From sequence record SRR20825006_884: 59,712 nucleotides of DNA; one strand, 5' to 3'. The notes under the pieces are model-generated. The model was not told the DNA's origin. It saw nothing but the letters and a program-made list of their open reading frames with translations, and made no database searches. The translations under genes and the position numbers were made by a program. The number at the start of each line of letters is the position of its first letter. The first letter of the stretch is position 1. Below, in pieces: positions 3,765 to 46,066 of this stretch.

Positions 3765-3919
3765 GCCCCTCTCCCCTTGGGTCTGCCCAGTCATTCCCAC
3801 CAAACGTGGCGACTGGATCTTTTATTGGGCCTCTTTCGCATTCGGAAAAAGGTTACATCAAAATTTCAAATAAAATTCGTTCCATAGTGAGAATTGCGTG
3901 TCAAACACCATATCAGACC

Positions 3920-4552
3920 ATGAAAACACGCGATCGCATACTTCACGTTAGTTTGCTTCTCTTCAATGAAGAAGGAGAAGCCCAGCAGACGGCTGTTGAT
4001 ATTTCGAATGCGCTCGATATCAGCCCTGGCAACCTCTATTACCATTTCAAGGGCAAGGACGCGATCATCCATGCCCTGTTTGACCGGTTCGAGGACGAGA
4101 TGCGCATCATCCTGAGCGGGTCCCGTGGCCGGATTACCAGTCTGGAGGACAGCTGGGTCTACCTCTACATCATTCTCGAAGAAATTTACGACTTTCGGTT
4201 TTTTTATCGCGATCTTGGACTATTGCTCGATCGGTATCCTGACCTTGCCAAACGGTTCAGATCCATCCTGTCGCGGATGCGGACCGCGCTTGTTGATGTG
4301 CTGGATGAATTGACCGCGGGATCGGTGTTGCGGCTGGATCCGCGTCTGAGAGAAGTTCTGACAGACCAATTCATGACGACCCTGACCTTTTGGTTGGCGG
4401 AGGATCATTTGAATGCGGACAGCCATGATGGGCCAACCTTGATCCACAGGACTGTGCTTCAGGTCATGTGCCTGTTGCCACCCTATATGGGTGACCGGGG
4501 TGTGGAGACGCTGACAGATCTCTTCGAGCATTACGACACCGTCGTCGCATAA
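3920..4552 (+). CDS. phaD: TetR-family regulator, PhaD-like
   Basis: MKTRDRIL...ISPGNLYYHFKGK HTH closely resembles PhaD; lies in the pha locus. Confidence 0.85.
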   Translation: MKTRDRILHVSLLLFNEEGEAQQTAVDISNALDISPGNLYYHFKGKDAIIHALFDRFEDEMRIILSGSRGRITSLEDSWVYLYIILEEIYDFRFFYRDLGLLLDRYPDLAKRFRSILSRMRTALVDVLDELTAGSVLRLDPRLREVLTDQFMTTLTFWLAEDHLNADSHDGPTLIHRTVLQVMCLLPPYMGDRGVETLTDLFEHYDTVVA

Positions 4553-4553
4553 G

Positions 4554-4582
4554 AAAAGGGCGGTCCCTCACGGAACCGCCCT
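4554..4582 (-). terminator. Rho-independent terminator between convergent phaD and phaF-like genes
   Basis: AGGGCGGT...ACCGCCCT stem with a flanking A-tract (U-tract on the minus strand). Confidence 0.7.
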
Positions 4583-4606
4583 CGCCTGTTTCATGATTGT
4601 GCCGGA

Positions 4607-5551
4607 CTACTTCATCAGCACTTTGGCTTGTTTGACCCATTCATCGCGGGCGATACGGCCACGCGCCATTATCTTGGCGTCCAGGGCCTGAATGTCTGCC
4701 GCCTTGAGCGCGGCGATATCGGCAAAGCTCTTGATACCCGCCGCTTTCAACTTGGCGGCTAGTGCAGGGCCGACCCCTGTCATGAGCGTGAAGTCATCCG
4801 CCTTGGTTGACGCGGCAGAGGCCGGTTTTGCCTTTGCGACAGGCTTGGCTTTTGCAGATGTCTTCGGTTTAGCCTCCGCTGGCTTTGCGACGGCGTCCTG
4901 AACAGCCTTTGATGTGCGTTGGGCCGCCTTCTTGCTCGTCTTAACAAGATCCGCACCGGACTCCGTTGCCACAGCTTCGATCTCTTCGGTCAGCCGTGAA
5001 ATACGCTGCTTCAGATCATTGCTGCGGTCTTTGGTTTTGGACCGAGCCTTCGAAACCGTTTCAGCAACTTCGTCTTCCAGTTTGTCGAGCTTGGCGGCGA
5101 GCTTGCCACCTTTCTTGCCGAGGCCCTTCACGCCCAGCAAGTCGCGCATGCGTTCCATCCGAGCTTCAAACTCGTCACGTGCCTGAGTCTGGAATTCGCG
5201 GGCGACGCTGGCATATTTGGCCGCGTTCTTCGAAGCGTTCTGAACAACATCATTGTCCTGAACGCGTGCGCGGACGTCATGCTCAATCTCTTCGCCACGC
5301 TTGACGAGGTCTTCGAACAATTCGGTGGACTGCTTGTTGAACGTCTTCGTATTGGCGATTGCCTTGTCATAGGCTTTGCCATAGGCGCCAACGCCTGCGA
5401 GCCAGATCTTGTGTGCCATGTCGGCCGTGTTTGGCTCAGGCGCTTTGGAAGCCTTCTTTGCCTTGGCTGGCTTCTTGGTGGATTTGGAGGCTTTTGCGCT
5501 CGCGGCTTTTGCCGACTTCGCTTTCGCCTTCTTCTCATTTTTCTTGGCCAT
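4607..5551 (-). CDS. PhaF/PhaI-like phasin with Lys/Ala-rich segments and a C-terminal helix-hairpin-helix domain
   Basis: KIWLAGVGAYGKA...FEDLVKRGE phasin motif; AKP-rich linker; C-terminal DDFTLMTGVGP...GIKSFADIA HhH-like domain; AAGGAG RBS before the ATG at 5551. Confidence 0.8.
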   Translation of the reverse strand: MAKKNEKKAKAKSAKAASAKASKSTKKPAKAKKASKAPEPNTADMAHKIWLAGVGAYGKAYDKAIANTKTFNKQSTELFEDLVKRGEEIEHDVRARVQDNDVVQNASKNAAKYASVAREFQTQARDEFEARMERMRDLLGVKGLGKKGGKLAAKLDKLEDEVAETVSKARSKTKDRSNDLKQRISRLTEEIEAVATESGADLVKTSKKAAQRTSKAVQDAVAKPAEAKPKTSAKAKPVAKAKPASAASTKADDFTLMTGVGPALAAKLKAAGIKSFADIAALKAADIQALDAKIMARGRIARDEWVKQAKVLMK

Positions 5552-5694
5552 GTGTGGCGCTCCTTTATCCGTAAGTTTCAATGGGACAGGACGTATCGAA
5601 AATTCCTAGAATCTTCATACTAATCGCTGCCCCCCTTGAAACAGAAGACCGAATGCCCTGTATCTGACAGGCACACACCAAGGAGAGCAAAGAC

Positions 5695-13668: not shown

Positions 13669-14468
13669 ACGTTTACGCGGGACAGCAGCTCAACGGTCTG
13701 GCCGTACCCCTCCACGTCTGGAATGATCAGACACGGCTCGCCTTCGGGTGTCTCTGACTGCTGCGGTTTGACGGTTATAACGGTTTCGCGGCCAAATCGC
13801 TCGACCGCATCGGCCACAGAACTGGCCGTTGCGAACTTTTTCAAATTCATCCGGGTGGGGAAGATGATAATAGCCTCACCGGCCTCCTCTGCATCCAGTG
13901 CGGCTTGCGCCCCAATCCACACAGAGTCCGTTGTCTCGCGGCCATCATGGGCGGCAATCTGATCTGGCGGTGCAGGCGCAACATAGAAATGCGTATCAAA
14001 GCGCTTGGGCATCATGTCGGGTGTGATCCAGTGCCCAAAGTAAACGAGACTATCGAGCGCGAGCACGAGATCATTGTCGCGTATCAGCTCCAGAAAGCTC
14101 TGCTCGCCCCGGTCTACAGCTGACCGGAATGGATCCAGTTTTTCCGCCATGTCAGGGCCAACCAGCGGCTGATTGGTACCACGCTGCGCGCGCGGGCGCG
14201 CCAGCAACAGGCCCGACTCCTCATAAGCTTCGCGCACCGCCGCGATACGCGCGTCCTGCTGCACCGGCCCGAAATCGCCATCGGTGTAGGGATCCCAATC
14301 CGCACTTGCATCTTCCGCATTTGCCTTGCCACCTGGGAAGACGAGCGCGCCCGCAGCAAAGTCGATCTGATAGTGGCGTTTCACCATCAGCACTTCGGGA
14401 ATGTTTGCTCCATCTCGAACGATGAGCACTGTGGCCGAGAGTCTTGGTGCGTCGGGCTGCGTTGTCAT
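13665..14468 (-). CDS. NUDIX hydrolase
   Basis: VFPGG...[11 protein letters not shown] Nudix box, plus [13 protein letters not shown] typical of this subfamily. Confidence 0.88.
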
Positions 14469-14590
14469 TTTCTTATGGTCCCGTATTTTTCTGTCAAATT
14501 TCCTCAAAATCCCAATGGATTTCTGCGCGTGATCTTCAATCCTCTCCCTTAGGTAAGGCAATAGGCACGGTCAGAAAGACGGGAAGAGTG

Positions 14591-15271
14591 ATGCGGGAAT
14601 TGCTTCAAACGAAAGTTGTCGCCCACAGTGGACAGAAGGTCCATCTCCGCTTCCAGCCTGTCATGCATGTGCTCGACGGTACCTCGTTTGGTACGGTCTG
14701 CGAGATGTCCAAGCGGTTTGAAGAGAAGGCCGCCTTCGGCCCGGCCGCCGCTACTCAGTCAGCAACAGGCCCAGCCAAATGGCTTGCTGATCGTCTTCTC
14801 GAAGTCGCCAGCGCGGCGCATACATTTGACAATCGGATGCGCCCAATCATTGTGCCGGCCCCGGCAGCAGCGCTTGGGGATGACAACACAGCTGTAGGCT
14901 GTGATGCCGCGATCCGCCGAACGACCCTCTGCCAACAAGAAATCAGTCTCGAATTCCAGGATTCTGTCTTCGCCGATGGGCGCACGGAGGCGATCCACAG
15001 CGTGGCAAGTCTCCGCAAGCGCGGCTTTCGCGTATCAATCGATATGCGTAAATCGTGGCAGACCCAATTGCGCGATGGCCTCGGTCTGATGATCGATAGT
15101 ATCCGAGTGGATGCCCGAGAACTGCAAATCAATGAAGAGCTGATGGATTTGTGCGAATTTGCCAGCGCCGCCGGTATTCTCGTCATCGCCGACAAGGCGA
15201 ATTGGCGTGATGGAGCGTTTTTCGACAGTCTGGGTGTCCAGGCGGGCGTCCGAATGCGCACCGACTGCTAG
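14591..15271 (+). CDS. Degenerate EAL-domain protein
   Basis: LRFQPV, ISLEF and GFRVSID resemble the EAL fold, but the EAL and DDFGTG motifs are absent. Confidence 0.6.
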   Translation: MRELLQTKVVAHSGQKVHLRFQPVMHVLDGTSFGTVCEMSKRFEEKAAFGPAAATQSATGPAKWLADRLLEVASAAHTFDNRMRPIIVPAPAAALGDDNTAVGCDAAIRRTTLCQQEISLEFQDSVFADGRTEAIHSVASLRKRGFRVSIDMRKSWQTQLRDGLGLMIDSIRVDARELQINEELMDLCEFASAAGILVIADKANWRDGAFFDSLGVQAGVRMRTDC

Positions 15272-18243: not shown

Positions 18244-19158
18244 CTACTGAACGGAGATGTTCACCGAGTTGCCGATGGATGCAGCGGTGGCTGCGGCCTC
18301 GGCACCATGGGACACCTGGGCAGCAAGTGCAGAAATCTGATGGCCAGAATTCGCCTGTCTGACGCGAGTCAGGCCGTTGCCCACGACATCAGAGTTCAGG
18401 CTGGTGAGCGATGCGGAATTACCGATCGCAGCTGCGGTGGCTGTTCCGTCAGCAAAGCCAACCAAACGACCGTTCAATTCGGCGACCATCGTACCGGAAT
18501 TGTACTGCTGCGCAGTCATGCTGCCGCTTCCCGGGATCTCAACGGATAGCGAATTGCCGATCGACGCCGCAGTTGCGGTGGCTTCAGTTATCTCACTGAT
18601 CGTCGCATTCATCTGAGTGGTCATGTATCCGCTGTTCGATTGCGTTGAGCGGCTTGCGAGTGTGCTGGCTTCTGACGTGACCGATGCAGTATTGCCGATG
18701 GCAGCTGCCGTCGCTGTTGCGATACCGGAATTCTCGATGTTCACATTGGCATTGGCATAGGCTGCACCTGAATTGCCTTGGTTGACCGATGAGACGGCAT
18801 CGGCAACCGAGTCGATCGAATAGGAATTGCCGATTGTCGCAGCCGTGCCGGTGACTTCACCCATCGCACCGCTGAGAAGGTTGAGAGTTGCACTCTGATT
18901 GCCGCTGTTGACCTGACGCGTTGCGTAGTCAACTGCGTTGGCGGCGGCATCGGACACGTCACCAAGAGCTGAATCGCCCAGCACGTCCAAATCGGCATCA
19001 ACCAAACTGTCGCCACCAATGTCGACAGAGGCATCGACGACGTCTCCAATGCCGAGATCGACATCGACTGGACCTCTGCCATTATTGTTGCCGCGGTCGG
19101 CGACCGCCTGTTCGCACAGAATGAGGGCAGAAGCGAAGAAAAGAGCAGACCGTTTCAT
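18244..19158 (-). CDS. Secreted HfaD-like holdfast-anchor / amyloid-like repeat protein
   Basis: Signal peptide; five repeats of QxNSG...TAA(A/S/T)IGN(S/T); Ala/Ser/Asn/Gly-rich; third gene after hfaA- and hfaB-like genes. Confidence 0.75.
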   Translation of the reverse strand: MKRSALFFASALILCEQAVADRGNNNGRGPVDVDLGIGDVVDASVDIGGDSLVDADLDVLGDSALGDVSDAAANAVDYATRQVNSGNQSATLNLLSGAMGEVTGTAATIGNSYSIDSVADAVSSVNQGNSGAAYANANVNIENSGIATATAAAIGNTASVTSEASTLASRSTQSNSGYMTTQMNATISEITEATATAASIGNSLSVEIPGSGSMTAQQYNSGTMVAELNGRLVGFADGTATAAAIGNSASLTSLNSDVVGNGLTRVRQANSGHQISALAAQVSHGAEAAATAASIGNSVNISVQ

Positions 19159-19170
19159 GAATATTCTCCT

Positions 19171-20025
19171 TTAATGATTAGTCTGTTGAAAGGCAGGCAC
19201 GTCCGACATGACGAACTCTGCTTGAGAGCAGGCTTGCACGGACGGACCGGCGATACCTGAGACGAGATCGAAAACGGCGCTTTCGACGATCGTTCGGATT
19301 GCAGTGTGCACAGGCTCCTGAGCGCGCTCGCCCATGCCAATGTCGATGGTTGTGTCCCCAATGAATTCGAACACACCCGCGCGAATTTCGCGCCCGCGAA
19401 TTATTTTCCGTTGGCTGACCAGATTTACCACGCTCAAATCAGTGGCATTGACCAGACGGAGGTCCAGGGCGACAGTCATTGCATAGTGGCGTTCACCACC
19501 TACAACAGGCCCTATACGTGCTTCGCGAACATCGCTGTGCACGTTGAAATTCAGTTCCGTGATACCGCCGAGCAGGATGTAGTCGCTGCCGGCAATCGAA
19601 CCTGTGAATACTTTGCGGTAGTCTTCGGTTGGTTCGCCAGCTTCACTGATTAACCGATTGTTTGCGAATTCCAGCTCCTGCTCGGCGACCGCCGTATCCA
19701 GACGTTCAGCCAGTGGAAAACCAGCCTGGCTCACTGCCGACATCACCATCAGAGAGGCGCCCTGCGTGGCCACTGCGCCTTCGAAAGTTGAAAATCTTCC
19801 GGTCATGTCGCGAATGTCGCCCACGGCAATTCGTGGTTTCTCCGCCGGCGTGCTCCACTTCATGCAGCTGAGCTGGCCCGAATACGCAGTGGAGCTATCT
19901 TCCACGATTGCGCCCGTCGACAAGTAGTCGGGATTGGAGACGATTCCTTCCATCGACGTGCAAGCCGTCGAAAAGACCAGACCTGCGCCGATCAGAAACG
20001 TGCGAAATGCTTTTCGATAGGTCAT
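19171..20025 (-). CDS. hfaB: HfaB / CsgG-family outer-membrane secretion lipoprotein
   Basis: Lipobox STAC; IAVGDIRDMTG, TQGASLMVMSA, ERLD, GGITELNFN, VALDLRLV, AQEPV. Confidence 0.85.
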   Translation of the reverse strand: MTYRKAFRTFLIGAGLVFSTACTSMEGIVSNPDYLSTGAIVEDSSTAYSGQLSCMKWSTPAEKPRIAVGDIRDMTGRFSTFEGAVATQGASLMVMSAVSQAGFPLAERLDTAVAEQELEFANNRLISEAGEPTEDYRKVFTGSIAGSDYILLGGITELNFNVHSDVREARIGPVVGGERHYAMTVALDLRLVNATDLSVVNLVSQRKIIRGREIRAGVFEFIGDTTIDIGMGERAQEPVHTAIRTIVESAVFDLVSGIAGPSVQACSQAEFVMSDVPAFQQTNH

Positions 20026-20027
20026 GA

Positions 20028-20414
20028 TCAGTCACTCCCACTCGTTGGAAGGTGAGCGACGATTGCGGTCTGGTTCCCCGTGCTGATTTGGGAGGCATCC
20101 ACCATCACGGTGTTGTTGTTGCCTTCAATATCCACACTGATCATGTTGCCGATTGCGGTAGCACTACCGCCAGTTGTTGTACCTGACCATGACGGCATCA
20201 TCGCACGCGTGCTCCCGAAGGAACCGTTGGTAGCTGAGGATCTGGACCCCCCGCCGGCGACGATGACGCGATTGGCCTGGGCATCGCGGCTGAAGCCTAG
20301 CGGCGTATCTGACCATCCGCCGGCTTCCATGCTTATCTGAGCCGAAGCCGGGATAGCAGACACAAGCGATGCAGAAATCGCAATTGCTTGTAGTTTCAGT
20401 TTCAAATTCGTCAT
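20028..20414 (-). CDS. hfaA: HfaA-like holdfast anchoring protein
   Basis: Signal peptide; RDAQANRVIV and C-terminal SATAIGNMISVDIEGNNNTVMVDASQISTGNQTA typical of HfaA. Confidence 0.8.
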   Translation of the reverse strand: MTNLKLKLQAIAISASLVSAIPASAQISMEAGGWSDTPLGFSRDAQANRVIVAGGGSRSSATNGSFGSTRAMMPSWSGTTTGGSATAIGNMISVDIEGNNNTVMVDASQISTGNQTAIVAHLPTSGSD

Positions 20415-20518
20415 TTCGTATCCCCGAATGAGTACCAAGCTCGAGGACACAATCGACCTTTATTGTGGCGCGGTATATTCTCCGGAAGGACGGTCTTGCA
20501 GCGCAAAGGGCGGGGCCG

Positions 20519-20538
20519 ACCTGACCTTTTGGTCAGGT
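20519..20538. promoter_or_regulatory. Perfect inverted repeat in the hfaA / H-NOX divergent promoter region (putative operator)
   Basis: ACCTGACC-TTTT-GGTCAGGT. Confidence 0.6.
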
Positions 20539-20646
20539 AGTTCCCTCAATCGATCACTGGTATTTGTTCGAAAGGCTTAGAAGCCCTGGCACGATCGGGC
20601 CGAGGTCTGCTGCTTTGCTGTATTTGGAATGAACTGGAGCCAAATG

Positions 20647-21195
20647 ATGAAGGGAGTTGTGTTCAGACAGTTTCTGGAATTCGCAGAAAAGGAGTTCGGC
20701 GAAGCCAAAATCGACGAATTGCTGCGCACGACCGACTTGGAATCGGCTGGAGTGTATACGAATGTCGGATATTACGACCATGTCGAAATGCTGACATTGG
20801 TTACCGCGCTCTCAAATCAGACAGGCCGGTCAGCACGACAACTCCTGGTTGGCTTTGGACGCAGTCTGTTCCCCACGCTTATTGCGGGTCACCCTCAAGA
20901 CGGTATCAGCCATGCCTTTGACTTGATCGAACGCATACATGGCGTCATTCATCGGGATGTTCGTAAACTGTATCCCGATGCTGAAGTCCCGGATATCCAG
21001 CCCCGATCTCGTGATGGAGACCGCGAAATGCGCATCACATACGCCTCGGGACGACCCATGGCCGATTTATGTGAAGGCATGATCATGGCGGCTCTTGATC
21101 ACTATAATAAACTCGAAGATTTTGAAATTGTACGAACCGATAGTAAACATCGGTACCTTTACAATGCGGAATTTCATGTATTCCGCAGGGATTGA
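20647..21195 (+). CDS. H-NOX (heme NO/O2-binding, HNOB) sensor protein
   Basis: N-terminal MKG, YTNVGYYD, proximal His region IHRDVRKLYPDAEVP, YxSxR motif YASGR. Confidence 0.88.
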   Translation: MKGVVFRQFLEFAEKEFGEAKIDELLRTTDLESAGVYTNVGYYDHVEMLTLVTALSNQTGRSARQLLVGFGRSLFPTLIAGHPQDGISHAFDLIERIHGVIHRDVRKLYPDAEVPDIQPRSRDGDREMRITYASGRPMADLCEGMIMAALDHYNKLEDFEIVRTDSKHRYLYNAEFHVFRRD

Positions 21196-22889
21196 ACTTG
21201 AGCGAAAGTGATGAAAATCTCGCACGGCTAAAACGGAAGCTCGAGAGAGAGTCTGCTGCACGCACGGCTGCGGAAAACCTGCTGGAAGTTCGATCCGCTG
21301 AACTTTATGAAATCACCGAGCAACTCCGTGAGGAAGCCCTCCAAGTCAAACACTTGTCGACCGCGATTGATGTGTCTGCTGACGGTGTCGCCATCACCAA
21401 CAAGGATGGCGTTTTCACCTACATGAATCCGACCCATGCCAGTATGTTCGGGTATGCCTACGCCGGTGAGTGTATCGGACGACCCTGGACGATTTTGTAC
21501 GCCAAGGACACGTTGCGCCGATTTGAACGCGACATCTTTCCTCTCTTCCAGCAAAACGGGTATTGGCGCGGCGAAGTCGCCGGCATTGCCAATGATGGTT
21601 CAAAAGTACATCAGGATCTGTCGCTGACAGCGATCGCGGATGGAGGCATCCTCTGCTCCACACGCGATGTGGGCATCATTCGACGCCGCGAAGCCCAACG
21701 AGAACAATTGCACGAAATGCTGCTCGACGCTGAACGCCGCGATGCTCTCGGCCGTATGGCGAAATCAGTTGGGCACGACTTCGCAAACATACTGGCCATC
21801 ATAAACGCCTCTGCACAATTGCTGGCTGATGACGGACAGGCCGACATCTTCGAATTGTTGATAGAGCGCATTCTCCAATCCTGTAATCAGGCCAATGATC
21901 TGGTCGAAGACTTGATGCATTTCGATACCGAACCAGAGCAAAAAGTCTGTTCCCTGAACGACCTCGTTCGGGATGTCAGCGAACTCAACAGCAACCAGTT
22001 CCTGGCAACGCAGGGCTTCGAAACCCTGGTGACCACAAGCAAGCTCATCTGCGAAACCGATCCGACCCTGTTTTCCCGGATGGTCTTCAATCTTGTCAAG
22101 AATGCACGCGAGGCCATCAACGAGAATGGGAGCGTCTACCTCTCCCTGGAGCAGATCGATAAAGACAGTACAGTGGAACCCGACTTTCACCCATCCGCAA
22201 TTTGCAACCGTGGAGACTGCCAGTCATTCCCGGCTGCGCGCCTGATCGTGCGCGACGATGGAGTCGGCATGTCTCAAAAAGCTCTTGATACAGCTTTTTT
22301 GCCATTTCAGTCGACCAAAGGTACCGGGCGCGGGCTTGGACTGGTTACGGTTGATGCCCTGTTACAGGGTCAGATGGGCCGAATGCGCGCTTTCAGCCGC
22401 CCCGGCGAAGGGACGATGGTCGCGATCGACTTGCCCTTGCTGGACGCACGCGCGCCCAGAACGTTTCCCAATTCCATCAACGACCCCGATAAGCCAAGTA
22501 CGGGCGCTCAAGGCGCACTGGTCATAGACGATGATCAATTTCAAGTGGACCTTGTCGTCACCCTGTTGAGAGAATTCGGTTGGGATGCTGTGGGTTTTAC
22601 AAATCCGGTCGCCGCACTTGGCGTCTTCAAAGTTGCACCCTGGGCCTTCGAGTTGATTGTAACAGACCGTCGCATGCCACAAATGAGCGGTGATGAGCTG
22701 GTTCTCGAATTGCTGGATGTCCGGGCGGACATCCCCGTCGTAATGAGTTCCGGCGCTCTCGCATCCCCCCTGCCAGCCGGTCTGGCCGCGACCATTGCCA
22801 AACCACTGTCTCGTGAAAAATTATGGGCAACCCTGCACAAGATTGGCAAAACTGCGCCGGCACATCCACCATTGTCAGCGAACGAGTGA
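21192..22889 (+). CDS. PAS-containing hybrid sensor histidine kinase (H-NOX-associated)
   Basis: N-terminal coiled coil, PAS, H-box GHDFAN, NLVKNAREA, DDGVGM, GRGLGL, C-terminal REC (TDRRMP); overlaps the H-NOX stop codon. Confidence 0.9.
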   Translation: MNLSESDENLARLKRKLERESAARTAAENLLEVRSAELYEITEQLREEALQVKHLSTAIDVSADGVAITNKDGVFTYMNPTHASMFGYAYAGECIGRPWTILYAKDTLRRFERDIFPLFQQNGYWRGEVAGIANDGSKVHQDLSLTAIADGGILCSTRDVGIIRRREAQREQLHEMLLDAERRDALGRMAKSVGHDFANILAIINASAQLLADDGQADIFELLIERILQSCNQANDLVEDLMHFDTEPEQKVCSLNDLVRDVSELNSNQFLATQGFETLVTTSKLICETDPTLFSRMVFNLVKNAREAINENGSVYLSLEQIDKDSTVEPDFHPSAICNRGDCQSFPAARLIVRDDGVGMSQKALDTAFLPFQSTKGTGRGLGLVTVDALLQGQMGRMRAFSRPGEGTMVAIDLPLLDARAPRTFPNSINDPDKPSTGAQGALVIDDDQFQVDLVVTLLREFGWDAVGFTNPVAALGVFKVAPWAFELIVTDRRMPQMSGDELVLELLDVRADIPVVMSSGALASPLPAGLAATIAKPLSREKLWATLHKIGKTAPAHPPLSANE

Positions 22890-22903
22890 ATCGGATTTAC
22901 AGC

Positions 22904-23509
22904 ATGCACCTTCTAATTGCCGATGATCATGATCTCGTGCTGGACGCCGTCCGGTCACTGCTGGAGCACGAATTGCCCGACGCGAAGATTACGATCATGC
23001 GCGATGGCGATGTCGTCAGGACCGCTCTTCAGAATGGCGATCGCTATGATCTCGCTTTGCTGGACCTGCGGATGCCGGGCATCACGGGTGTTCAAGACGT
23101 CAAAGAGCTTATTGCCATGTTTTCCGATCAACCGATTGCGATCCTGTCAGGTGTTGCAGGGCAGATGGAGATAACTGCTCTATTGGAAAGTGGCGCCCGG
23201 GGCTTTATCCCCAAGACCATGCCGGGCGACGGCTTGGTCGCCGCGGTCCGTCTTATTCTGGCAGGACAGGTTTTCAGTCCCACCCAGACCGACAAGAGTC
23301 AGGGAGCAGACGGCTCAAGTCTCACCCCACGTGAACGCGAAGTGCTGTTCTGCCTGCAGCGAGGGGAATCCAACAAACAGATCGCCCGGTTGCTCGACAT
23401 TCAGGAAACAACAGTAAAGCTACACTTGCGGTCGTTGGCCTTGAAACTGGAAGCACGCAATCGCACCGAAGTGGTCGTCAAGGCGATCCAGTCGGGTCTA
23501 ATCGCATAG
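22904..23509 (+). CDS. NarL/LuxR-family response regulator
   Basis: IADDH, LDLRMPG, FIPK; HTH LTPREREVL...SNKQIA...TVKLH. Confidence 0.92.
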   Translation: MHLLIADDHDLVLDAVRSLLEHELPDAKITIMRDGDVVRTALQNGDRYDLALLDLRMPGITGVQDVKELIAMFSDQPIAILSGVAGQMEITALLESGARGFIPKTMPGDGLVAAVRLILAGQVFSPTQTDKSQGADGSSLTPREREVLFCLQRGESNKQIARLLDIQETTVKLHLRSLALKLEARNRTEVVVKAIQSGLIA

Positions 23510-23585
23510 ATAACCGTCTCATGAGCACGTCATTCAACAAGCGGCGCACGCCGGCTTGTTTTCTCGTGCCCCACTTATTCCGATA

Positions 23586-23601
23586 TGCGTATTCTTCCGG
23601 A
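23586..23601. promoter_or_regulatory. FixJ/NarL-type 6-4-6 box upstream of the fixK-like gene
   Basis: TGCGTA-TTCT-TCCGGA; similar boxes at 24938, 24957 and 32567. Confidence 0.45.
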
Positions 23602-23660
23602 GTGTCCGCGCCACCGCTTTGCACCACTCTTCTTTGATGGATCAAAGTTAGGAGAGTGGC

Positions 23661-24335
23661 ATGGCACGGTTTGCAGCAGTTCCTGAAGCACATGCGAGCT
23701 TAGCTAGCGCACGACAAGTGTACGCCCCCGGGACTCATCTTTTCCATCAAGGCGATATTGAGCGAGGCATCCACAAGATTGTATCGGGTACCGTGACCGT
23801 TTACCGAGTCACGGCGGATGGACATCGCCAGATCGAAGCATTTTCCGGCCCAGGTGAATATGTCTCTCTGTGTTTGTGCGCCACCAGTCCGACAAGTGCA
23901 GAAGCGCTAAGCCGCGTGGAAACAAACTATGTGAGCCGTGAAGCTTTTGAGCGATGCCTTCTACAAGACGCGCAATTTCGACAGACGGTGTTTCGCGAGA
24001 TAGACAAGGCGTCCGCAGACGCGCGCCGTCAGGCCACATTGCTAGCCTGTCGCTGTGCGAAGGAGCGGGTAGCAGATTTCGTGCTTTTCCTTGATTCACG
24101 CTTTGCACCCAAAGCCGATGGCTACACACCTATTCGAATGAGCCGGTGTGACATCGCCGATCATCTGGGGCTGACAATTGAAACCGTCAGCCGCATGCTC
24201 AACCAGTTCAAGCAAATTGGCGTCATCGACATGCCTCGGGCTGATCGCTTTCGCCTAAGAAACCGTCAATATCTCAACCGCCTGGCCGGCCAGAATGATG
24301 AAGCGGATAGCAGACCACACGGACTGGCCCTGTAA
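23661..24335 (+). CDS. Crp/Fnr-family regulator, FixK-like
   Basis: cNMP-like domain; HTH MSRCDIADHLGLTIETVSR (ExxSR recognition helix); no N-terminal Fnr Cys cluster. Confidence 0.88.
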   Translation: MARFAAVPEAHASLASARQVYAPGTHLFHQGDIERGIHKIVSGTVTVYRVTADGHRQIEAFSGPGEYVSLCLCATSPTSAEALSRVETNYVSREAFERCLLQDAQFRQTVFREIDKASADARRQATLLACRCAKERVADFVLFLDSRFAPKADGYTPIRMSRCDIADHLGLTIETVSRMLNQFKQIGVIDMPRADRFRLRNRQYLNRLAGQNDEADSRPHGLAL

Positions 24336-24496
24336 GTCAGTCCTCTTTACAATCCGTTGATCCCCGTACGGCGTATGGTGCGGTGACTTTCCAAGCAGGA
24401 AATTTCGGCGAGTGATCTTGTACTCGCGGAACACTAATACGTCCGGAGGCAAATTTTTCACCTCCGACTACAGGTTAAGCTGTGCGCGCCTTAATG

Positions 24497-24856
24497 CTAT
24501 TCAGAGGATGAACTATCCAGTGTAATCGCGACGAAGCGGTCGAGCTGGTCGACATAGTCATGCGCTGCTTCGCTGGCTGCGCGGAACCAAACTGCGGCGC
24601 CCTGTTGTGGCGATTTACAAGTGCCAAGTTCACTCATGAAAGAAATGTCCTTCCGCAGGCGCCTGTTGTAGAACTTCGCCATATCCTGACTTGCTTCCAT
24701 GAAGTGCTTCATGCTGACGGCACCAAATTGCATTGTGTCGGTTACCGGGATCGGTATCGCGCTGTTGGGAATGAACCCTGTCCCGTTTGTGCCAACTTGC
24801 GAACTTGATTTTTGACTCGCTGCCGCTTTCTGGGTTGTGGACTTAGTCTGGGCCAT
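24497..24856 (-). CDS. Phasin-like small protein
   Basis: FYNRRLRKD...LGTCKSPQQ...AAHDY pattern of alphaproteobacterial phasins; GGAGAG RBS. Confidence 0.6.
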   Translation of the reverse strand: MAQTKSTTQKAAASQKSSSQVGTNGTGFIPNSAIPIPVTDTMQFGAVSMKHFMEASQDMAKFYNRRLRKDISFMSELGTCKSPQQGAAVWFRAASEAAHDYVDQLDRFVAITLDSSSSE

Positions 24857-24937
24857 GGCATCTCTCCGATATGTTTGAAATGTTGGGGTTAGAGTTCTGT
24901 CTTTTACCATACAACCGCAGTCTATCTCGCCGCGAAA

Positions 24938-24972
24938 TACGCATTACCCCTGAATTCACGTACTTCTACGGA
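24938..24972. promoter_or_regulatory. Tandem 6-4-6 boxes in the phasin / pta divergent promoter
   Basis: TACGCA-TTAC-CCCTGA (24938-24953) and CACGTA-CTTC-TACGGA (24957-24972). Confidence 0.45.
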
Positions 24973-25078
24973 CTTGCCCAAATGTCTCCGTCAGGATTGA
25001 GTATGCGAAACGGTATTCCGGAGAGAGTGATCGCATGACAAGTACAATTCGATATCCCGCCAGAACCCGGTCAGGGTC

Positions 25079-26014
25079 GTGACCAGCGACATGGATGGCA
25101 AGTTCGATTGGCTCATTGCGAAAGCCGCGGCTCAACCCGGCCCGACATTACGCGTTGCGGTTATACATCCTGTAGATGCCTCCAGCCTCAAAGGTGCTTT
25201 GGACGCGGCGCAGGCTGGTATCATGACGCCCATCCTGGTGGGACCGATTGCAAAAATGTCTGCAGCAGCGGAATTGGCCGGCCTCGACATTTCTGGCCTT
25301 GTGCAGATTGAAGCACCCTACAGCCACGCAGCCGCGGCAAGATCCGTAGAGCTTATCCATGAAGGCAATGCAGATGCCCTCATGAAAGGCGCGCTCCACA
25401 CAAATGAAATGATGGCTGAAATCGTCAAACGCGCCGGTGGCTTGCGCACTGACCGGCGCATGAGCCATGTGTTCCTGCTCTCCACCGCCGGTTATCACAA
25501 ACCGTTGCTGATCAGTGATGGCGCCCTCAACATTGCGCCTGACCTCACCTCGAAACGCTGGATAACGCAAAACGCAATTGACGCGGCCCGGGCCATCGAC
25601 ATCGATCCGCCAAAAGTTGCCATCCTGTCTGCAACCGAAGAGGTGGACCCGATCATACCGTCCACCCTGGATGCAGCCGCCCTGTGCAAGATGGCGGACC
25701 GAGGTCAGATCAAGGGCGGCGTCGTGGACGGCCCCCTTGCATTTGATCTGGCTGTCTCACCTGAATCGGTCGCAACCAAAGGCCTGAAGTCTCCGGTCGC
25801 CGGGGATGCAGATATTCTGATCGTTCCCGCCATCGAGGCTGGAAACATGTTGGCCAAACAGCTGGACTATCTAGCCGGCGCATCAGCGGCTGGAATTGTT
25901 CTGGGTGCCAGTGTTCCGATTATTCTGACCAGCCGCGCCGACAGCGCCGAGGAGCGACTGGCTTCATGCGCCTTTGCGTCAGCCGTGGCGCACTGGCAGC
26001 GAGACCAGCCATGA
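25079..26014 (+). CDS. pta: Phosphate acetyl/butyryl transferase
   Basis: ALMKGALHT, DGALNIAP, VDGPLAFD, PAIEAGNMLAK, PIILTSRAD. Confidence 0.9.
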   Translation: MTSDMDGKFDWLIAKAAAQPGPTLRVAVIHPVDASSLKGALDAAQAGIMTPILVGPIAKMSAAAELAGLDISGLVQIEAPYSHAAAARSVELIHEGNADALMKGALHTNEMMAEIVKRAGGLRTDRRMSHVFLLSTAGYHKPLLISDGALNIAPDLTSKRWITQNAIDAARAIDIDPPKVAILSATEEVDPIIPSTLDAAALCKMADRGQIKGGVVDGPLAFDLAVSPESVATKGLKSPVAGDADILIVPAIEAGNMLAKQLDYLAGASAAGIVLGASVPIILTSRADSAEERLASCAFASAVAHWQRDQP

Positions 26015-27186
26015 CGCGCCGCGCTGTCGCAACATTCAATGTGGGTTCTTCCAGCCTCAAATTCTCGATTTTCGAAATCGACGCTGTCGGCGAGTTGGGA
26101 GAATGCCTCTTTCGCGGCGCTGTGCGCGATCTTTCCGGCGCGCGACGCGTAGACGTATCAGACCCGGAAAAAGTGAAGCCGCTTCAGAGCGTCATAGCCA
26201 GCATATCTGATCCAAAGCATTTGATCACCGCGCTTGCGACCTGGCTAACCGGGCCGGAGGCGGGCGTGACCCTTTCCGGTATAGGACACAGGATCGTGCA
26301 TGGCGGCACCCTGTTTGAGGGCCCGGTCGCCGTTAGCGACAAGACCATTGAGCGCTTACAGGCCCTCGCAGTCTTCGCGCCAGCGCACCAACCGCATAAT
26401 CTCGCGGGCGTGCAAGCCGTTGCAAATGCCCTGCCCGAGATCCGTCAAACCTTGTCATTCGACACGGCGTTCCACAGGACCATGCCGCACATTGCCGAAC
26501 TCTACGCTCTGCCCCGTGCGCTAAGCGAACAAGGCATATTGCGCTTCGGATTTCATGGCTTGTCATATGTGCACATCGCAGAAACTCTTAGTGAGGTTCT
26601 GGGCGCGCGTCCAAAGCGTGTGCTTGCCTTGCATCTGGGCAGCGGCGCAAGCGCCTGCGCCATGATTGACGGGAAAAGCATCGCCACATCCATGGGCTTG
26701 ACCGCACTTGATGGCTTGCCCATGGCGACTCGCTGCGGGGATCTGGATCCGGGCGTGGTCCTGCACCTGATCAAGGATCGTGCTATGCCAGTCGAAGAGG
26801 TTTCCGACCTGCTTTACACGAAGTCTGGCCTACTTGGCGTCTCTGGCATATCGGGAGATACCAAAACGCTTCTGGAAAGCCCTGCCCAAGAGGCGAAAGA
26901 AGCTATCGATCTATATTGCTACAGGATCGCCAGCCAATGCGGCTCACTTGCCGTAGATATGAAAGGGTTTGACGCAATTGTATTCTCGGGCGGAGTCGGC
27001 GAGAACGCACCAGCAATCCGCTCACGAATTATTCAACACCTCGATTGGCTAGGTCCAACTCTTGACGACGCCGCGAACGAAGCGAATGCAGAAGTTCTGT
27101 CTCCCAAGGGGGCGTCGGTGCCGGTGGTGCGCGTTGTCGCGGATGAAGAGCGCATCATTGCGCGCGAATGTGCCTCTCTTCTCTAG
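26011..27186 (+). CDS. ackA: Acetate/propionate kinase
   Basis: NVGSSSLKF, GHRIVHGG, FDTAFH, GFHGLSY, HLGSGAS, FSGGVGEN. Confidence 0.93.
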   Translation: MTRRAVATFNVGSSSLKFSIFEIDAVGELGECLFRGAVRDLSGARRVDVSDPEKVKPLQSVIASISDPKHLITALATWLTGPEAGVTLSGIGHRIVHGGTLFEGPVAVSDKTIERLQALAVFAPAHQPHNLAGVQAVANALPEIRQTLSFDTAFHRTMPHIAELYALPRALSEQGILRFGFHGLSYVHIAETLSEVLGARPKRVLALHLGSGASACAMIDGKSIATSMGLTALDGLPMATRCGDLDPGVVLHLIKDRAMPVEEVSDLLYTKSGLLGVSGISGDTKTLLESPAQEAKEAIDLYCYRIASQCGSLAVDMKGFDAIVFSGGVGENAPAIRSRIIQHLDWLGPTLDDAANEANAEVLSPKGASVPVVRVVADEERIIARECASLL

Positions 27187-36540: not shown

Positions 36541-38814
36541 TCAGGCCAATTGCCCCATGCGGTCGCTTAACTTGATACCCAGTCCCAGTTGTGAAATAGG
36601 CGCAGGTCGACCAAACAGATAGCCTTGTACTTCACCAAAGCCTGCCAGGTTCACGAACCGGAACTGTTCTTCTGTCTCCACACCTTCAGCAATCACCTTG
36701 ATATCCAGAACCCGACTCATGCCTGACAGAATGCCGAGGATTTGCCGGGCGCGATCACTTTCTTCCGCACGAACGAAGAATGAGCGGTCGATCTTAACCC
36801 GGTCCACCGGCAAATGCTCCAGACGGCTGAGCGAAGAATTTCCGGTCCCGAAATCATCCAAAGCGATCGTGATACCCATTTCCCGGATAACCTCAATCAC
36901 CTTGCACGAAGTTTCGATATTGCGCAGCACGCCCCGCTCCGTGATTTCGAGCTCCAGCAGGTGTGGGGGAAACCCCGTCTCTTGAAGTATTTCAGCGACC
37001 GATTCAGAAAAACCATCGGACAATAATTCATTGGGAGATACATTGACGCTCAACCGAATGCTGTCACCGCTCTTCGACATCCACCCGAGAACGTCTTCGC
37101 ATGCCTGACGCAACACATACTGGCCGAATGCAATGATATGCCGACTTGCCTCAGCGATCTCGATGAATTCCGACGGATTGATCGATCCGTACTTGGGGTG
37201 GGTCCACCGCGCCAACGCTTCGACACCAACCAACTGGCAATCTGAGACCCGCACAATCGGCTGGTAGTACAACCCGATCTTGCCTTCATCTATTGCAGGC
37301 ATGAGGTCCCGGTGAATGGACAGGCGACGCTCCAGGCGTTGACGTACTTTCGCATCGGGAACAACGCAGGAATCGCCGCCTTGTGACTTCGCTTCGTATA
37401 CTGCCGCATCAGCCTGTTCCAACACGTCCGCAATGGATTCTCCCTGCAAGCCGATGGCCGCGCCAATGGACGCTGTTACATCAATCAAGCGACCATCATA
37501 TGCGATTGGCTTTGATACCAAGGATCTGATCCGGTCTGCCAAGACCGAGATATCATCAAGATTCACCGCCCTGCCGACAACGCAACAGAACTCATCGCCC
37601 CCAATCCGGAACACGCGAATGCTATCGTCTTTGTCGGCGAGATGTTTCAAACGACCCCCGAGTGCGATCAACGCCGCATCCCCGCCAGCATGACCATGCC
37701 GGTCATTCAATTCCTTGAACTTGTCCAAATCGATGTAGAGGACGCTCATCAAGGCAGGGCGATCATCTCTCTTGCAAGATTCGATCAGAGAATTGAATGC
37801 GTGGCGGTTCTCCAAGCCTGTTAGAAGATCCGTCGTAGCCTGCTGCTTCAGCTTCTGCTCAAATTCCTCACGTACACTGATGTCATGCGCCACGCCCAGA
37901 TACCCGGTAAATTCCCCATTCTCGGAGAACAGCGGACGCCCGCTAACCTCAACGCTGCAATTGACGCCATCGGCGCGCAGAACACCCTTTATCCTCGAAA
38001 ACGGCTCACGACGCTGAATAGCTCCTGTGAACACCGCCTCATCGTTTTCCCATCCAATCAGCACATCGCGCCAACGACGTCCGAGAGCGTCGCCCTTGCC
38101 GAAATAATGGACAATCTTGCCAGTCGAATCGACTTCAATATGCCAGTCCGAAGACATCTCGGCATACGAAGTAGACCGCCCCCGATATCTATTCTCCCGC
38201 TGCAGAACCTCTTTCAGCGTAGTGTAGACATTTTGTCCGAATTGTTTCGGCAGCACGGCCGCAACACAACACGCAATAGCAATCAGGCTCAGCCCGATAG
38301 CTGTAAGTGCCGTATTGTCTACTCCGCCTACAATTACGTCCAACCGATCGGCTGGTCCCATATACCAGTTGATGAACCCGATAATGAAAGCAGTGTAGGC
38401 AAAGCTCAGCTTCATCGTGGTGAAGAGCCCCCAGATGATCGGCGTAATGCTGAGTAATAGCATTCCCACAAATATGCCTTCATGGTCCAATACAAGCATG
38501 GCGAACAAATTTGCCGGAACACTGACACAAAGCAGCAATCCCTGGAGCAACATGAATTTGCGTCTGGCTGCGAAGTAAGCAGATGCAATCAACGCTGCCG
38601 CCGTAAGAGCGTCTATGAAGGTTCCGATATTCAGTTCGTATTGATCAACCACAAGCAGGCTCGTGATCGTGATCATCATGATGATGAGGGCTGTCAGAGC
38701 ACTGTAGAAGATGATCGATTGCTGCAGACGATCCGGGCTCAGAATGGATTCTGCCAGCTCATCAATCGGGCCATCCCAGGAAGACGTTTTGGATTTACTG
38801 ATATATTGCTGCAT
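36541..38814 (-). CDS. Membrane-anchored PAS-GGDEF-EAL diguanylate cyclase/phosphodiesterase
   Basis: N-terminal TM helices; DLLTGLENR, DLDKFKELND, GGDEF, EAL and DDFGTG motifs all intact. Confidence 0.92.
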   Translation of the reverse strand: MQQYISKSKTSSWDGPIDELAESILSPDRLQQSIIFYSALTALIIMMITITSLLVVDQYELNIGTFIDALTAAALIASAYFAARRKFMLLQGLLLCVSVPANLFAMLVLDHEGIFVGMLLLSITPIIWGLFTTMKLSFAYTAFIIGFINWYMGPADRLDVIVGGVDNTALTAIGLSLIAIACCVAAVLPKQFGQNVYTTLKEVLQRENRYRGRSTSYAEMSSDWHIEVDSTGKIVHYFGKGDALGRRWRDVLIGWENDEAVFTGAIQRREPFSRIKGVLRADGVNCSVEVSGRPLFSENGEFTGYLGVAHDISVREEFEQKLKQQATTDLLTGLENRHAFNSLIESCKRDDRPALMSVLYIDLDKFKELNDRHGHAGGDAALIALGGRLKHLADKDDSIRVFRIGGDEFCCVVGRAVNLDDISVLADRIRSLVSKPIAYDGRLIDVTASIGAAIGLQGESIADVLEQADAAVYEAKSQGGDSCVVPDAKVRQRLERRLSIHRDLMPAIDEGKIGLYYQPIVRVSDCQLVGVEALARWTHPKYGSINPSEFIEIAEASRHIIAFGQYVLRQACEDVLGWMSKSGDSIRLSVNVSPNELLSDGFSESVAEILQETGFPPHLLELEITERGVLRNIETSCKVIEVIREMGITIALDDFGTGNSSLSRLEHLPVDRVKIDRSFFVRAEESDRARQILGILSGMSRVLDIKVIAEGVETEEQFRFVNLAGFGEVQGYLFGRPAPISQLGLGIKLSDRMGQLA

Positions 38815-45248: not shown

Positions 45249-46066
45249 GATGCTGTCAGTCTAATGCGAACCAGTCTCCACAATTCGCGGACGAGCAGGT
45301 GCTAGGCAACAAGGAGGTCGCGCCACTCGCGAAGCGCGGTGTCTCGTTTCTGTTTGAACAGGGTTCTGGTGTTGTCGTGCCTTTCAAAGTTGAAGTGATT
45401 GTGCACTGACGAAGAAACTGAGACGAACTTCTGCAGACTTCGCATCCGCCTGAGCCGGGACATCGCCCGCTCTCGCCTGCGGAAGGATAGGTGAGAAATT
45501 TATGCGCGTTTATTCAGATGGCGACCAGTTTCTTGGCGCGCCTCACTTCCGATGACCTTCATCGCAGCCCGATTAGACGGCCATCTACGAGTCACAATAA
45601 TTCGTGGATTCCCATGTCGCTTCATTGCTTTTTTGAGGAAACCTCAACGCAGCAGCCTTATGGCGCTTCTTCGCGACAAACGATTCCAAGACTTCGCTTT
45701 CATGATCCACGGCTCGCCAGAGGTAGTGGCGTAAGCCGCGAATCTCGACGAAGACGTCGTCCAGGTGCCACCGCCATTGGAGGCTTCTTCGCATCGACTC
45801 TGAGCGCCGCCTCCAGATCTTGTGTGCGAACAATGTGCCGAACCGATCAACCCAGAGCCTCAGGCTTTCGTAGCTGACATCTATCCCTCCCTCGCTTGTG
45901 GACAAGGTCCTCGACATTTTGGAGCGACAGCGGAAATCAGACGTACATCAACACGCAAGCTGGATGATCTCAGGCGAGGCTTTAAAGTAGCGACACGGGT
46001 TCTTGGCCATTTCCTCAGGCTAAACACCAGGATTGGTCGCCTCCAGATGTTTGCCCTGACAACACC
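45249..46066 (-). mobile_element. Degenerate IS6-family insertion sequence (transposase pseudogene at about 45302-46010)
   Basis: RWHLDDVFV...YLWRAVDHESEVL DDE segment and SHLSFRRRERAM...HNHFN C-terminus, with stops and frameshifts; imperfect terminal IRs GATGCTGTCAG / GGTGTTGTCAG; about 818 bp. Confidence 0.85.

Follow-up and report, generated by a model that had tools for sequence, protein, structure and literature searches.

A stretch of 59,712 nucleotides (nt) from sequence record SRR20825006_884, here called the window, has a base composition of 57% G+C and derives from a marine Hyphomonas. It carries a six-gene cassette in which genes resembling the holdfast-anchor genes hfaA, hfaB (a CsgG-family member) and hfaD (18244-20414, minus strand) stand back to back with genes for an H-NOX protein, a histidine kinase and a response regulator (20647-23509, plus strand). 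A first-pass annotation made from the sequence alone had described this hfa-like operon, the H-NOX trio, a divergent gap of about 230 base pairs (bp) and a palindrome within it, and all of these elements are present where they had been placed. Comparisons refer chiefly to Hyphomonas sp. L-53-1-40 (G001, the nearest genome compared), H. atlantica 22II1-22F38 (G062), a further Hyphomonas genome (G034), a genome of another genus in the same family (G109) and two genomes of another family (G208 and G277), all Caulobacterales. The cassette comprises the following features (protein lengths in amino acids, aa):

18244..19158, minus strand: HfaD-like secreted repeat protein, 304 aa (NF037936, E 4.5e-7, 29.5 bits)
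19171..20025, minus strand: HfaB-like CsgG-family lipoprotein, 284 aa (NF037935, 235.2 bits; PF03783, 70.2 bits)
20028..20414, minus strand: HfaA-like small secreted protein, 128 aa from the conserved ATG (NF037934, 47.5 bits)
20472..20509, no strand: conserved promoter-region block on the hfaA side, including ATATT at 20475-20479, invariant in four Hyphomonas
20519..20538, no strand: perfect 20-bp palindrome ACCTGACC-TTTT-GGTCAGGT, putative operator of the NarL-type regulator
20647..21195, plus strand: H-NOX heme sensor protein, 182 aa from the conserved MKG start (PF07700, 99.1 bits)
21192..22889, plus strand: cytoplasmic hybrid histidine kinase with coiled coil, PAS, HisKA, HATPase and C-terminal receiver
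22904..23509, plus strand: NarL/FixJ-type response regulator with REC and GerE helix-turn-helix

Three starts differ from those of the listed open reading frames (ORFs). The hfaA ORF extends to 20450, but the ATG kept in relatives lies at 20412-20414; the H-NOX ORF (20629-21195) has its start conserved among orthologues at the MKG at 20647, and orthologue alignment puts the start of the regulator (ORF 22823-23509) at 22904. The conserved hfaA and hnox start codons are separated by an intergenic gap of 232 nt.

Proteins of the cassette

The H-NOX protein exceeded the gathering score of the HNOB family (25.5 bits) by a wide measure, typical Caulobacterales H-NOX proteins scoring about 120-150 bits on the same model, and its best solved relatives were 6ocv (E 1.3e-33) and 6bde. 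The histidine in VIHRDV and the Y-A-S-G-R motif align with their equivalents in both structures; the proximal heme-ligand histidine and the Y-x-S-x-R propionate-binding motif were thus found, and nine sequences show no change at His103, Pro116, Tyr133, Ser135, Arg137 or Leu142. Five residues beyond the arginine of YxSxR stands the invariant Leu142 and not a tyrosine, at what we take to be the position where O2-binding H-NOX proteins need tyrosine. Because of this residue nitric oxide (NO) would be favoured over O2 as ligand, and the protein is probably NO-selective. The regulation by NO or O2 that the first-pass annotation had proposed is narrowed accordingly: intact heme ligands and the leucine favour NO and disfavour O2. 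A complex prediction for H-NOX with kinase residues 1-430 scored 0.14 against a mark of 0.34, which is evidence neither way.

The kinase gene overlaps the H-NOX stop by 4 nt and codes for a cytoplasmic core in which both HisKA and HATPase_c were found, as expected of a co-transcribed HnoK-type kinase; the phospho-acceptors His195 (HisKA) and Asp492 (receiver) are retained. Its best NCBIfam match was the VirA-like kinase model PRK13837 (146 bits, far under the cut-off). VirA passes phosphate straight to its regulator and uses its receiver domain as a regulatory element, and because the VirA-like model is the best family match, direct transfer from kinase to regulator was adopted as the likeliest route. 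The regulator matched Response_reg (61.9 bits) and GerE (66.1 bits) with the DD, D, S and K positions visible and the acidic pocket of the receiver retained, and its helix-turn-helix region scored 50 bits against the CsgD model (cut-off 250). No other cassette protein is so well conserved: it has 99, 83, 80, 77 and 71% identity to its counterparts in G001, G062, G034, G109 and G208, respectively. A FixLJ-FixK reading of the kinase, the regulator and a neighbouring Crp-type gene was rejected on the scores (FixL 49.7 bits, cut-off 850; FixJ 66.9 bits, cut-off 255) and on the neighbour itself, as the FixK-like gene is not kept beside the cassette (it is absent there in G062, G109 and G208).

It is conceivable that the signal is not NO acting through H-NOX, either because the PAS domain of the kinase senses redox state, O2 or a metabolite, or because the H-NOX protein binds O2 or CO, so that H-NOX would be at most accessory. 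The presence of the PAS domain speaks for this, the classical H-NOX-associated kinases being, as far as we are aware, without one. However, in every copy of the cassette the hnox gene overlaps or adjoins the kinase gene, none of the heme ligands varies, an invariant leucine stands in the place of the tyrosine of O2 binders, and the PAS domain gave no LOV-type match and none at the level of FixL. We consider a signal of this kind clearly unlikely.

The HfaB-like protein fell below the cut-off of the equivalog model NF037935 (300 bits), on which the canonical HfaB proteins of relatives score 384-453 bits; because of this score and its position in a separate clade (see below) we call it HfaB-like and not an HfaB equivalog. 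It passed the CsgG-family threshold (20.8 bits for PF03783) and carries a lipoprotein cysteine (Cys22, after STA) that is invariant in seven orthologues, making it a probable outer-membrane secretion channel. The HfaA-like and HfaD-like proteins also scored under the cut-offs of their models (50 bits for NF037934 and 100 bits for NF037936), the HfaD-like match covering residues 211-300 only. The holdfast-anchor gene order hfaA-hfaB-hfaD is present in the window and kept in all cassette copies. The HfaD-like protein consists of a signal peptide, an acidic D/G-rich region and five Q-x-N-S-G ... A-I-G-N-S repeats, whose motifs show no variation across the seven orthologues; an AlphaFold2 model from the seven-sequence alignment was unusable (mean pLDDT 41.6).

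HfaA-like is the fastest-diverging gene of the cassette (89, 70, 68, 43 and 45% identity to G001, G062, G034, G109 and G208), its 89% in G001 comparing with 94-99% for the other five proteins, and the surface-exposed parts of the HfaA-like and HfaD-like proteins look variable in length and sequence. The HfaD-like copy of G034 has 325 aa with extra acidic repeats, and in a metagenome contig that is otherwise 99-100% identical (L049, 6868-7878) the HfaD-like match was 73% over 341 residues. The 22 nt before the hfaA ATG (window 20412-20436; sense ACTCATTCGGGGATACGAA-ATG) are nearly invariant in Hyphomonas. UUCG and CGAA in this leader could pair around a GGGAUA loop holding the ribosome-binding purines, and such a hairpin, which G109 and G208 lack, may be a translational control element.

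A family scan of the cassette region found no homologue of CsgE or CsgF; the identical scan does detect a true csgF-csgG-curlin cluster in another genome (G137). The idea of a curli-like amyloid in the first-pass annotation calls for caution on these grounds, together with the lack of a curlin-repeat match and the three Hfa models scoring under cut-off. The same annotation had described a stand-alone module without hfs holdfast polysaccharide genes. No polysaccharide genes were found in the window (the 54 window ORFs scanned matched neither glycosyltransferase nor polysaccharide-export families; the related genomes were not searched for hfs), and the description holds for the window and for G001. 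It needs caution in two other genera, where a glycosyltransferase family 2 (GT2) gene lies downstream of hfaD. Four genes follow hfaD in G109 (L020 12410-15674), G208 (L021 12430-15891) and G277: a single-domain receiver (126 aa), a 258-aa protein weakly resembling the YaiO beta-barrel (E 6e-4), an unannotated ORF and a membrane GT2 glycosyltransferase (473-477 aa). Because of the GT2 and YaiO-like genes a polysaccharide partner is possible there, and the four genes could provide a synthase-type partner of this kind plus a second phospho-acceptor. The GT2 and barrel genes were not found in G001 or G062; G034 has homologues at 46% and 27% identity, 1.57 Mb away.

Conservation of the cassette

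Among 80 Hyphomonas genomes, H-NOX orthologues were detected in exactly three, G001, G062 and G034 (95, 80 and 76% identity), and HfaB-like orthologues in the same three (97, 90 and 90%). The H-NOX proteins of 11 other matching Hyphomonas genomes had at most 40% identity to that of the window, and the HfaB-family proteins of 18 others at most 45%. All three genomes display the order tig-hfaD-hfaB-hfaA followed divergently by hnox-hk-rr, where hk is the kinase and rr the regulator gene. Two of them, Hyphomonas sp. L-53-1-40 and H. atlantica 22II1-22F38, are cultured named strains.

The survey was widened to 301 Caulobacterales genomes at least 90% complete, with HNOB detected in 55 and the HfaB family in 163 (the latter tally includes the unpublished genome G121, on which no other result depends). 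Flanks were compared for six H-NOX genes with low, window-like HNOB scores, for two from genomes with paralogue-class HfaB (G204 and G317) and for six typical ones. The complete cassette was also present in G109, G208 and G277. Identity to the window in G109 and G208 was 43 and 45% for hfaA, 65 and 64% for hfaB, 53 and 53% for hfaD, 58 and 60% for hnox, 58 and 56% for the kinase and 77 and 71% for the regulator. The flanks in these other genera are P450 and major facilitator superfamily genes or aldo-keto reductase and cupin genes, not FixK or PhaC. The closest H-NOX/HfaB pair outside the cassette, among the matches listed (150 of 208 for the HfaB family), was 30.7 kb apart (G055). One genome (G018) was not assessable, its HfaB fragment lying on a 1.6-kb contig and its H-NOX (30% identity) in unrelated context. 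As to a separate canonical hfaABD, for which the first-pass annotation had recommended a check, G001 has no second HfaB-family gene; G109, G208 and G277 carry canonical hfaB elsewhere.

A metagenome scan with the HfaB alignment of the clade returned 80 loci. Fourteen had at least 64% identity, and hnox was divergent in all 13 of those with upstream flank, the fourteenth beginning inside hfaB; the 13 also carry kinase and regulator as far as each contig extends. No H-NOX match was found in the 66 loci of other HfaB lineages (41-49% identity), many of which lie on short contigs. The synteny first noticed in the window is therefore conserved, with the cassette in 6/6 genomes of three genera and in 13/13 assessable metagenome contigs.

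An HfaB tree of 28 rows, from which the G018 fragment was left out and for which locus L042 gave no match, placed the seven H-NOX-linked proteins in one clade (SH-aLRT 100, stem length 1.7), sister to paralogues without H-NOX and separate from canonical HfaB. Because they form one HfaB clade, the association of H-NOX with hfa appears to have a single origin. Judged by this comparison of sequences, the association is one that has been retained through deep divergence and changed genomic context, and the pairing is a conserved functional unit, not chance. A chance neighbourhood without functional meaning would agree with the descent of all copies from one ancestral arrangement, but it is scarcely credible in view of the 13/13 metagenome members and 6/6 genomes against 0/66 for the other HfaB lineages, and of a genomic context that differs between genera while operator spacing is conserved.

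Two further loci were observed. In G179 (L023 9156-16308), genes for a DUF4402 protein, a 293-aa protein (sub-threshold PapD_N match, E 0.046) and an 884-aa protein stand between an H-NOX/PAS hybrid kinase pair and a NarL-type regulator gene, all pointing the same way. Its trio is without hfa genes and has 34% (hnox), 33% (hk) and 43% (rr) identity to the window, and the gene set may be a second surface-fibre cargo on the same signalling chassis. G137 (L025 8265-18839) has a second, divergent H-NOX, paired with a hybrid kinase that lacks PAS. About 4.2 kb separate this pair from the true curli cluster (CsgF and CsgG with two Curlin_rpt proteins), an interval that holds ribosomal protein L9, DUF4915 and an unknown ORF; the palindrome is absent, and the proximity is probably a coincidence.

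The intergenic palindrome and the proposed regulation

In the window, 114 nt separate the centre of the palindrome from the hfaA ATG, and 118 nt separate it from that of hnox. Its exact 18-bp core occurs once in the 59.7 kb and is unique in each of the whole genomes G001, G034 and G062, always in the hfaA/hnox gap; the palindrome is invariant in four Hyphomonas genomes, with adjoining bases that vary. The gap of G109, G208 and G277 is unalignable with that of Hyphomonas, yet contains two or three variants of the same 20-mer, giving the family ACCTG(A/T)(C/T)C-N4-G(G/A)(T/A)CAGG. Genome-wide, the degenerate pattern ACCTGNYCNNNNGRNCAGG was confined to the gap in G109, G208 and G277 (1-3 sites each), with two matches outside it in G001 and one in G034, where reversed-pattern controls gave 0-4. 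Across 18 cassette loci, 25 matches were counted in 10,961 nt of hnox-hfaB spans compared to none in 223,296 nt of flanks, a contrast that is descriptive and carries no test because the loci are related and the counts not independent.

The centre of the hfaA-proximal site is 114-116 nt upstream of the hfaA ATG in 9/9 representative sequences from three genera, and ATATT is 60-61 nt upstream in the same nine (spacings in G208, G277 and L060 use the conserved hfaA start, 36 nt further on, 97-36=61). The distance from site to hnox varies from 110 to 138 nt in these nine, and loci of the G109/G208 type have an extra site, 65-67 nt before the hnox start. In G179 the sole match in the 19-kb locus is CCTGACCTTTTGGACAGG, upstream of hnox, with 75 nt between its end and the start of that gene; the recognition-helix stretch ETTVKLHLR of the regulator is also common to the distant G179 homologue. 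Because G179 keeps both without hfa, the motif appears to travel with the regulator. A 20-bp palindrome with such outer pentamers is, we assume, typical of GerE/LuxR-type DNA binders, and its behaviour suggests a conserved operator with a position fixed relative to hfaA. A genome-wide search allowing up to two mismatches in three related genomes gave 33, 41 and 34 matches against 23, 48 and 20 for the reversed control, with no sign of a wider regulon. A one-mismatch core, CCTGACCTTCCGGTCAGA, is common to G062 (C1:66503-66520) and G034 (C1:2004803-2004820), away from the cassette.

From these observations we propose the following regulation. The H-NOX protein would bind heme, most likely sensing NO rather than O2, and modulate autophosphorylation of the co-transcribed cytoplasmic PAS hybrid kinase. 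The kinase would set the phosphorylation state of the NarL-type regulator by direct transfer, its receiver domain being regulatory, and the phosphorylated regulator dimer would bind the 20-bp palindrome in the shared promoter region. Bound there, it would control its own operon and the divergent hfaA-hfaB-hfaD-like operon, which would supply a CsgG-type channel and two repeat-rich secreted proteins; because these are related to the Caulobacter holdfast anchor, the output is expected to be a surface adhesin or anchor fibre. We give this chain from H-NOX to the control of both operons, with its adhesin or anchor output, slightly better than an even chance.

The direction of control is held more weakly. 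The centre of the palindrome lies about 54 bp upstream of the ATATT element, and because this is a typical activator position the phosphorylated regulator might activate hfa. NO-bound H-NOX inhibits its kinase in the systems studied, so that, if the regulator does activate hfa, NO might lower hfa expression.

The two-component system could instead autoregulate its own operon only, the hfa-like operon being a co-inherited neighbour, perhaps functionally linked, under other control. The motif also precedes the hnox operon of G179, where no divergent hfa exists, the extra site of the G109/G208 type suits an hnox promoter, and HfaB paralogues occur elsewhere without H-NOX. This is nevertheless fairly unlikely, since the site keeps its 114-116 nt to the hfaA ATG and its fixed ATATT spacing while the distance to hnox varies, and the operons are still divergent neighbours despite 43-77% identity and a changed context. 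The palindrome might also be the binding site of a protein from another locus, such as a LuxR-type quorum-sensing regulator, as 20-bp palindromes ending in ACCTG/CAGGT resemble several LuxR-family operators. We think this very unlikely: the motif is nearly private to the gap in five genomes, it moves with the cassette between genera and with the distant G179 regulator homologue, the cassette regulator is the protein most strictly conserved, and the FixK-like neighbour is missing beside the cassette in the three genomes named above.

Several points weigh against control of both operons by the H-NOX system, although it is the best-supported of the readings considered. The regulatory wiring is drawn wholly from comparative evidence, and the single origin means that conservation reflects retention and not repeated independent assembly; HfaB paralogues in other genomes have no H-NOX nearby. 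The best NCBIfam matches of the three minus-strand proteins are holdfast-anchor models, all under cut-off, and neither the HfaA-like nor the HfaD-like protein matched Curlin_rpt (PF07012) at E<=0.01. The kinase is a hybrid and the cassette is without an Hpt gene (the scan of cassette and window ORFs gave no Hpt match), which leaves the phosphotransfer route unclear; Hpt matches occur elsewhere in the genomes, in Hyphomonas 15-19 kb off on the same contig. The PAS domain of the kinase could be the real sensor. A consensus scan of 20350-20700 returned no sigma-70-like promoter, so promoter positions are guesses, and the single central site of Hyphomonas could serve the hnox promoter alone.

A broader reading goes beyond the control of the two operons. 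It takes the cassette for a mobile and self-contained gas-regulated adhesion unit, in which an NO-sensing H-NOX system with a private operator would directly switch dedicated secretion of a CsgG-type amyloid-like fibre, the chassis having been rewired to different fibre genes across Caulobacterales (Hfa-like here, a DUF4402 cluster inside the operon in G179). We regard this as possible, with the balance against it.

Genomic setting, expression and comparison with known systems

In four marine RNA libraries (four studies), hfaD-hfaB-hfaA and hnox-kinase-regulator are each covered by separate contigs (e.g., X1, 19147-20428 and 20610-23598; X3, 20634-23809). One contig spans hnox-hk-rr in three runs, which does not prove a single transcript, and the depth ratio between the two operons varies from run to run. 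This fits transcription of both operons in nature, weakly, as DNA carry-over is possible. The contigs leave gaps at about 20429-20584 in 3/4 runs and at 20544-20633 in X3, which are no evidence of transcript ends; nor are the contig ends, with adapter-like loose ends at 20410, 20413 and 20585.

Elsewhere in the window are pst/phoU/phoB, trigger factor, DUF2336, a FixK-like gene, a phasin, pta-ackA, an ABC pump, molybdenum-cofactor genes and assimilatory nitrate/nitrite reductase genes. The FixK-like Crp/Fnr regulator (123.7 bits, cut-off 300), the phasin and pta-ackA adjoin the cassette (23661-27186); in G034, PhaC and a FixL/FixJ-like pair flank it instead. Farther away (2076-5581) there is another phasin, along with a polyhydroxyalkanoate (PHA) synthase and a PHA regulator of the TetR type. 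A weak EAL-domain ORF (32 bits) by DUF2336 (14444-15271), three genes from the cassette, is kept in G001 and G034, and a GGDEF-EAL protein lies 13 kb away (36541-38814); both are possible links to cyclic di-GMP (c-di-GMP). An IS240-type DDE transposase fragment (110-aa ORF) was observed at 45585-45917, about 22 kb from the cassette.

A full-text literature search found no paper tying H-NOX to hfa or CsgG-type genes; the first-pass annotation, too, had been aware of no description of the linkage. H-NOX signalling in studied bacteria reaches biofilm via c-di-GMP enzymes or quorum-sensing relays. If the proposed regulation is true, signalling would here act directly on the transcription of a defined secretion operon for an adhesin or anchor, via one regulator and one operator, and the full path from NO to attachment would therefore be testable with six genes and the 232-bp promoter region.

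The H-NOX/HnoK networks of Shewanella oneidensis and Vibrio cholerae reportedly include the DNA-binding HnoC, which controls hno genes. Like those systems, the cassette has a stand-alone heme H-NOX gene, apparently co-transcribed with that of a cytoplasmic kinase, a proposed output in attachment or biofilm and a putatively autoregulating transcription factor as regulator. Unlike them, its kinase is a PAS-containing hybrid, its sole regulator is a NarL-type DNA binder with no c-di-GMP enzyme, and its proposed direct target is a CsgG-type secretion operon. Vibrio HqsK is said to be a hybrid kinase too, and the Vibrio and Silicibacter kinases to feed quorum-sensing or c-di-GMP circuits via Hpt proteins, whereas the cassette is without an Hpt gene and a private operator beside the adhesin genes is proposed. 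Vibrio H-NOX/HqsK and Silicibacter sp. TrichCH4B are, in the portions of the papers available, marine examples of H-NOX paired with a histidine kinase in which NO affects biofilm (PMC3759921, PMC6759604, PMC4436077).

Within Caulobacterales, the H-NOX of Caulobacter crescentus (CC2992) adjoins HnoK (CC2993), and deletion of hnox leads to more surface-attached biomass and more c-di-GMP, according to the main text of that study, in which 'hfa' occurs 0 times (its supplementary proteome tables might list Hfa proteins; PMC10746521). The cassette belongs to the same bacterial order and likewise has H-NOX next to a kinase; CC2992, unlike the cassette gene, is not beside hfa genes. A canonical hfaABD operon has been described in Caulobacter and Hirschia (bioRxiv 10.1101/523142, in the part available). 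The cassette shares its gene order, a CsgG-like HfaB, a small HfaA-like and a larger HfaD-like secreted protein, but differs in that all three proteins score under the equivalog cut-offs and its HfaB falls in a long-branched separate clade.

Enterobacterial curli are encoded by the csgBAC and csgDEFG operons with the FixJ/NarL-type regulator CsgD. The cassette resembles this layout: its operons diverge from a common control region, one of them with the gene for a GerE-type regulator and the other with genes for CsgG-dependent secreted repeat proteins. It differs from curli in that its csgG sits with the subunit genes and Curlin_rpt, CsgE and CsgF are absent, and from CsgD in that its regulator accepts phosphate as a true response regulator and has a kinase and a gas sensor of its own. 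In mycobacterial DosS/DosT-DosR a heme-based gas-sensing kinase acts on a NarL-type regulator that binds a 20-bp palindrome; there, unlike in the cassette, the heme is held in GAF domains of the kinase and the regulon is a large dormancy regulon, the cassette operator being nearly private. As a form of H-NOX two-component signalling the cassette would have an output of a new kind, and it represents a third, sensor-linked lineage of HfaB/CsgG-type secretion outside the canonical holdfast anchor and curli.

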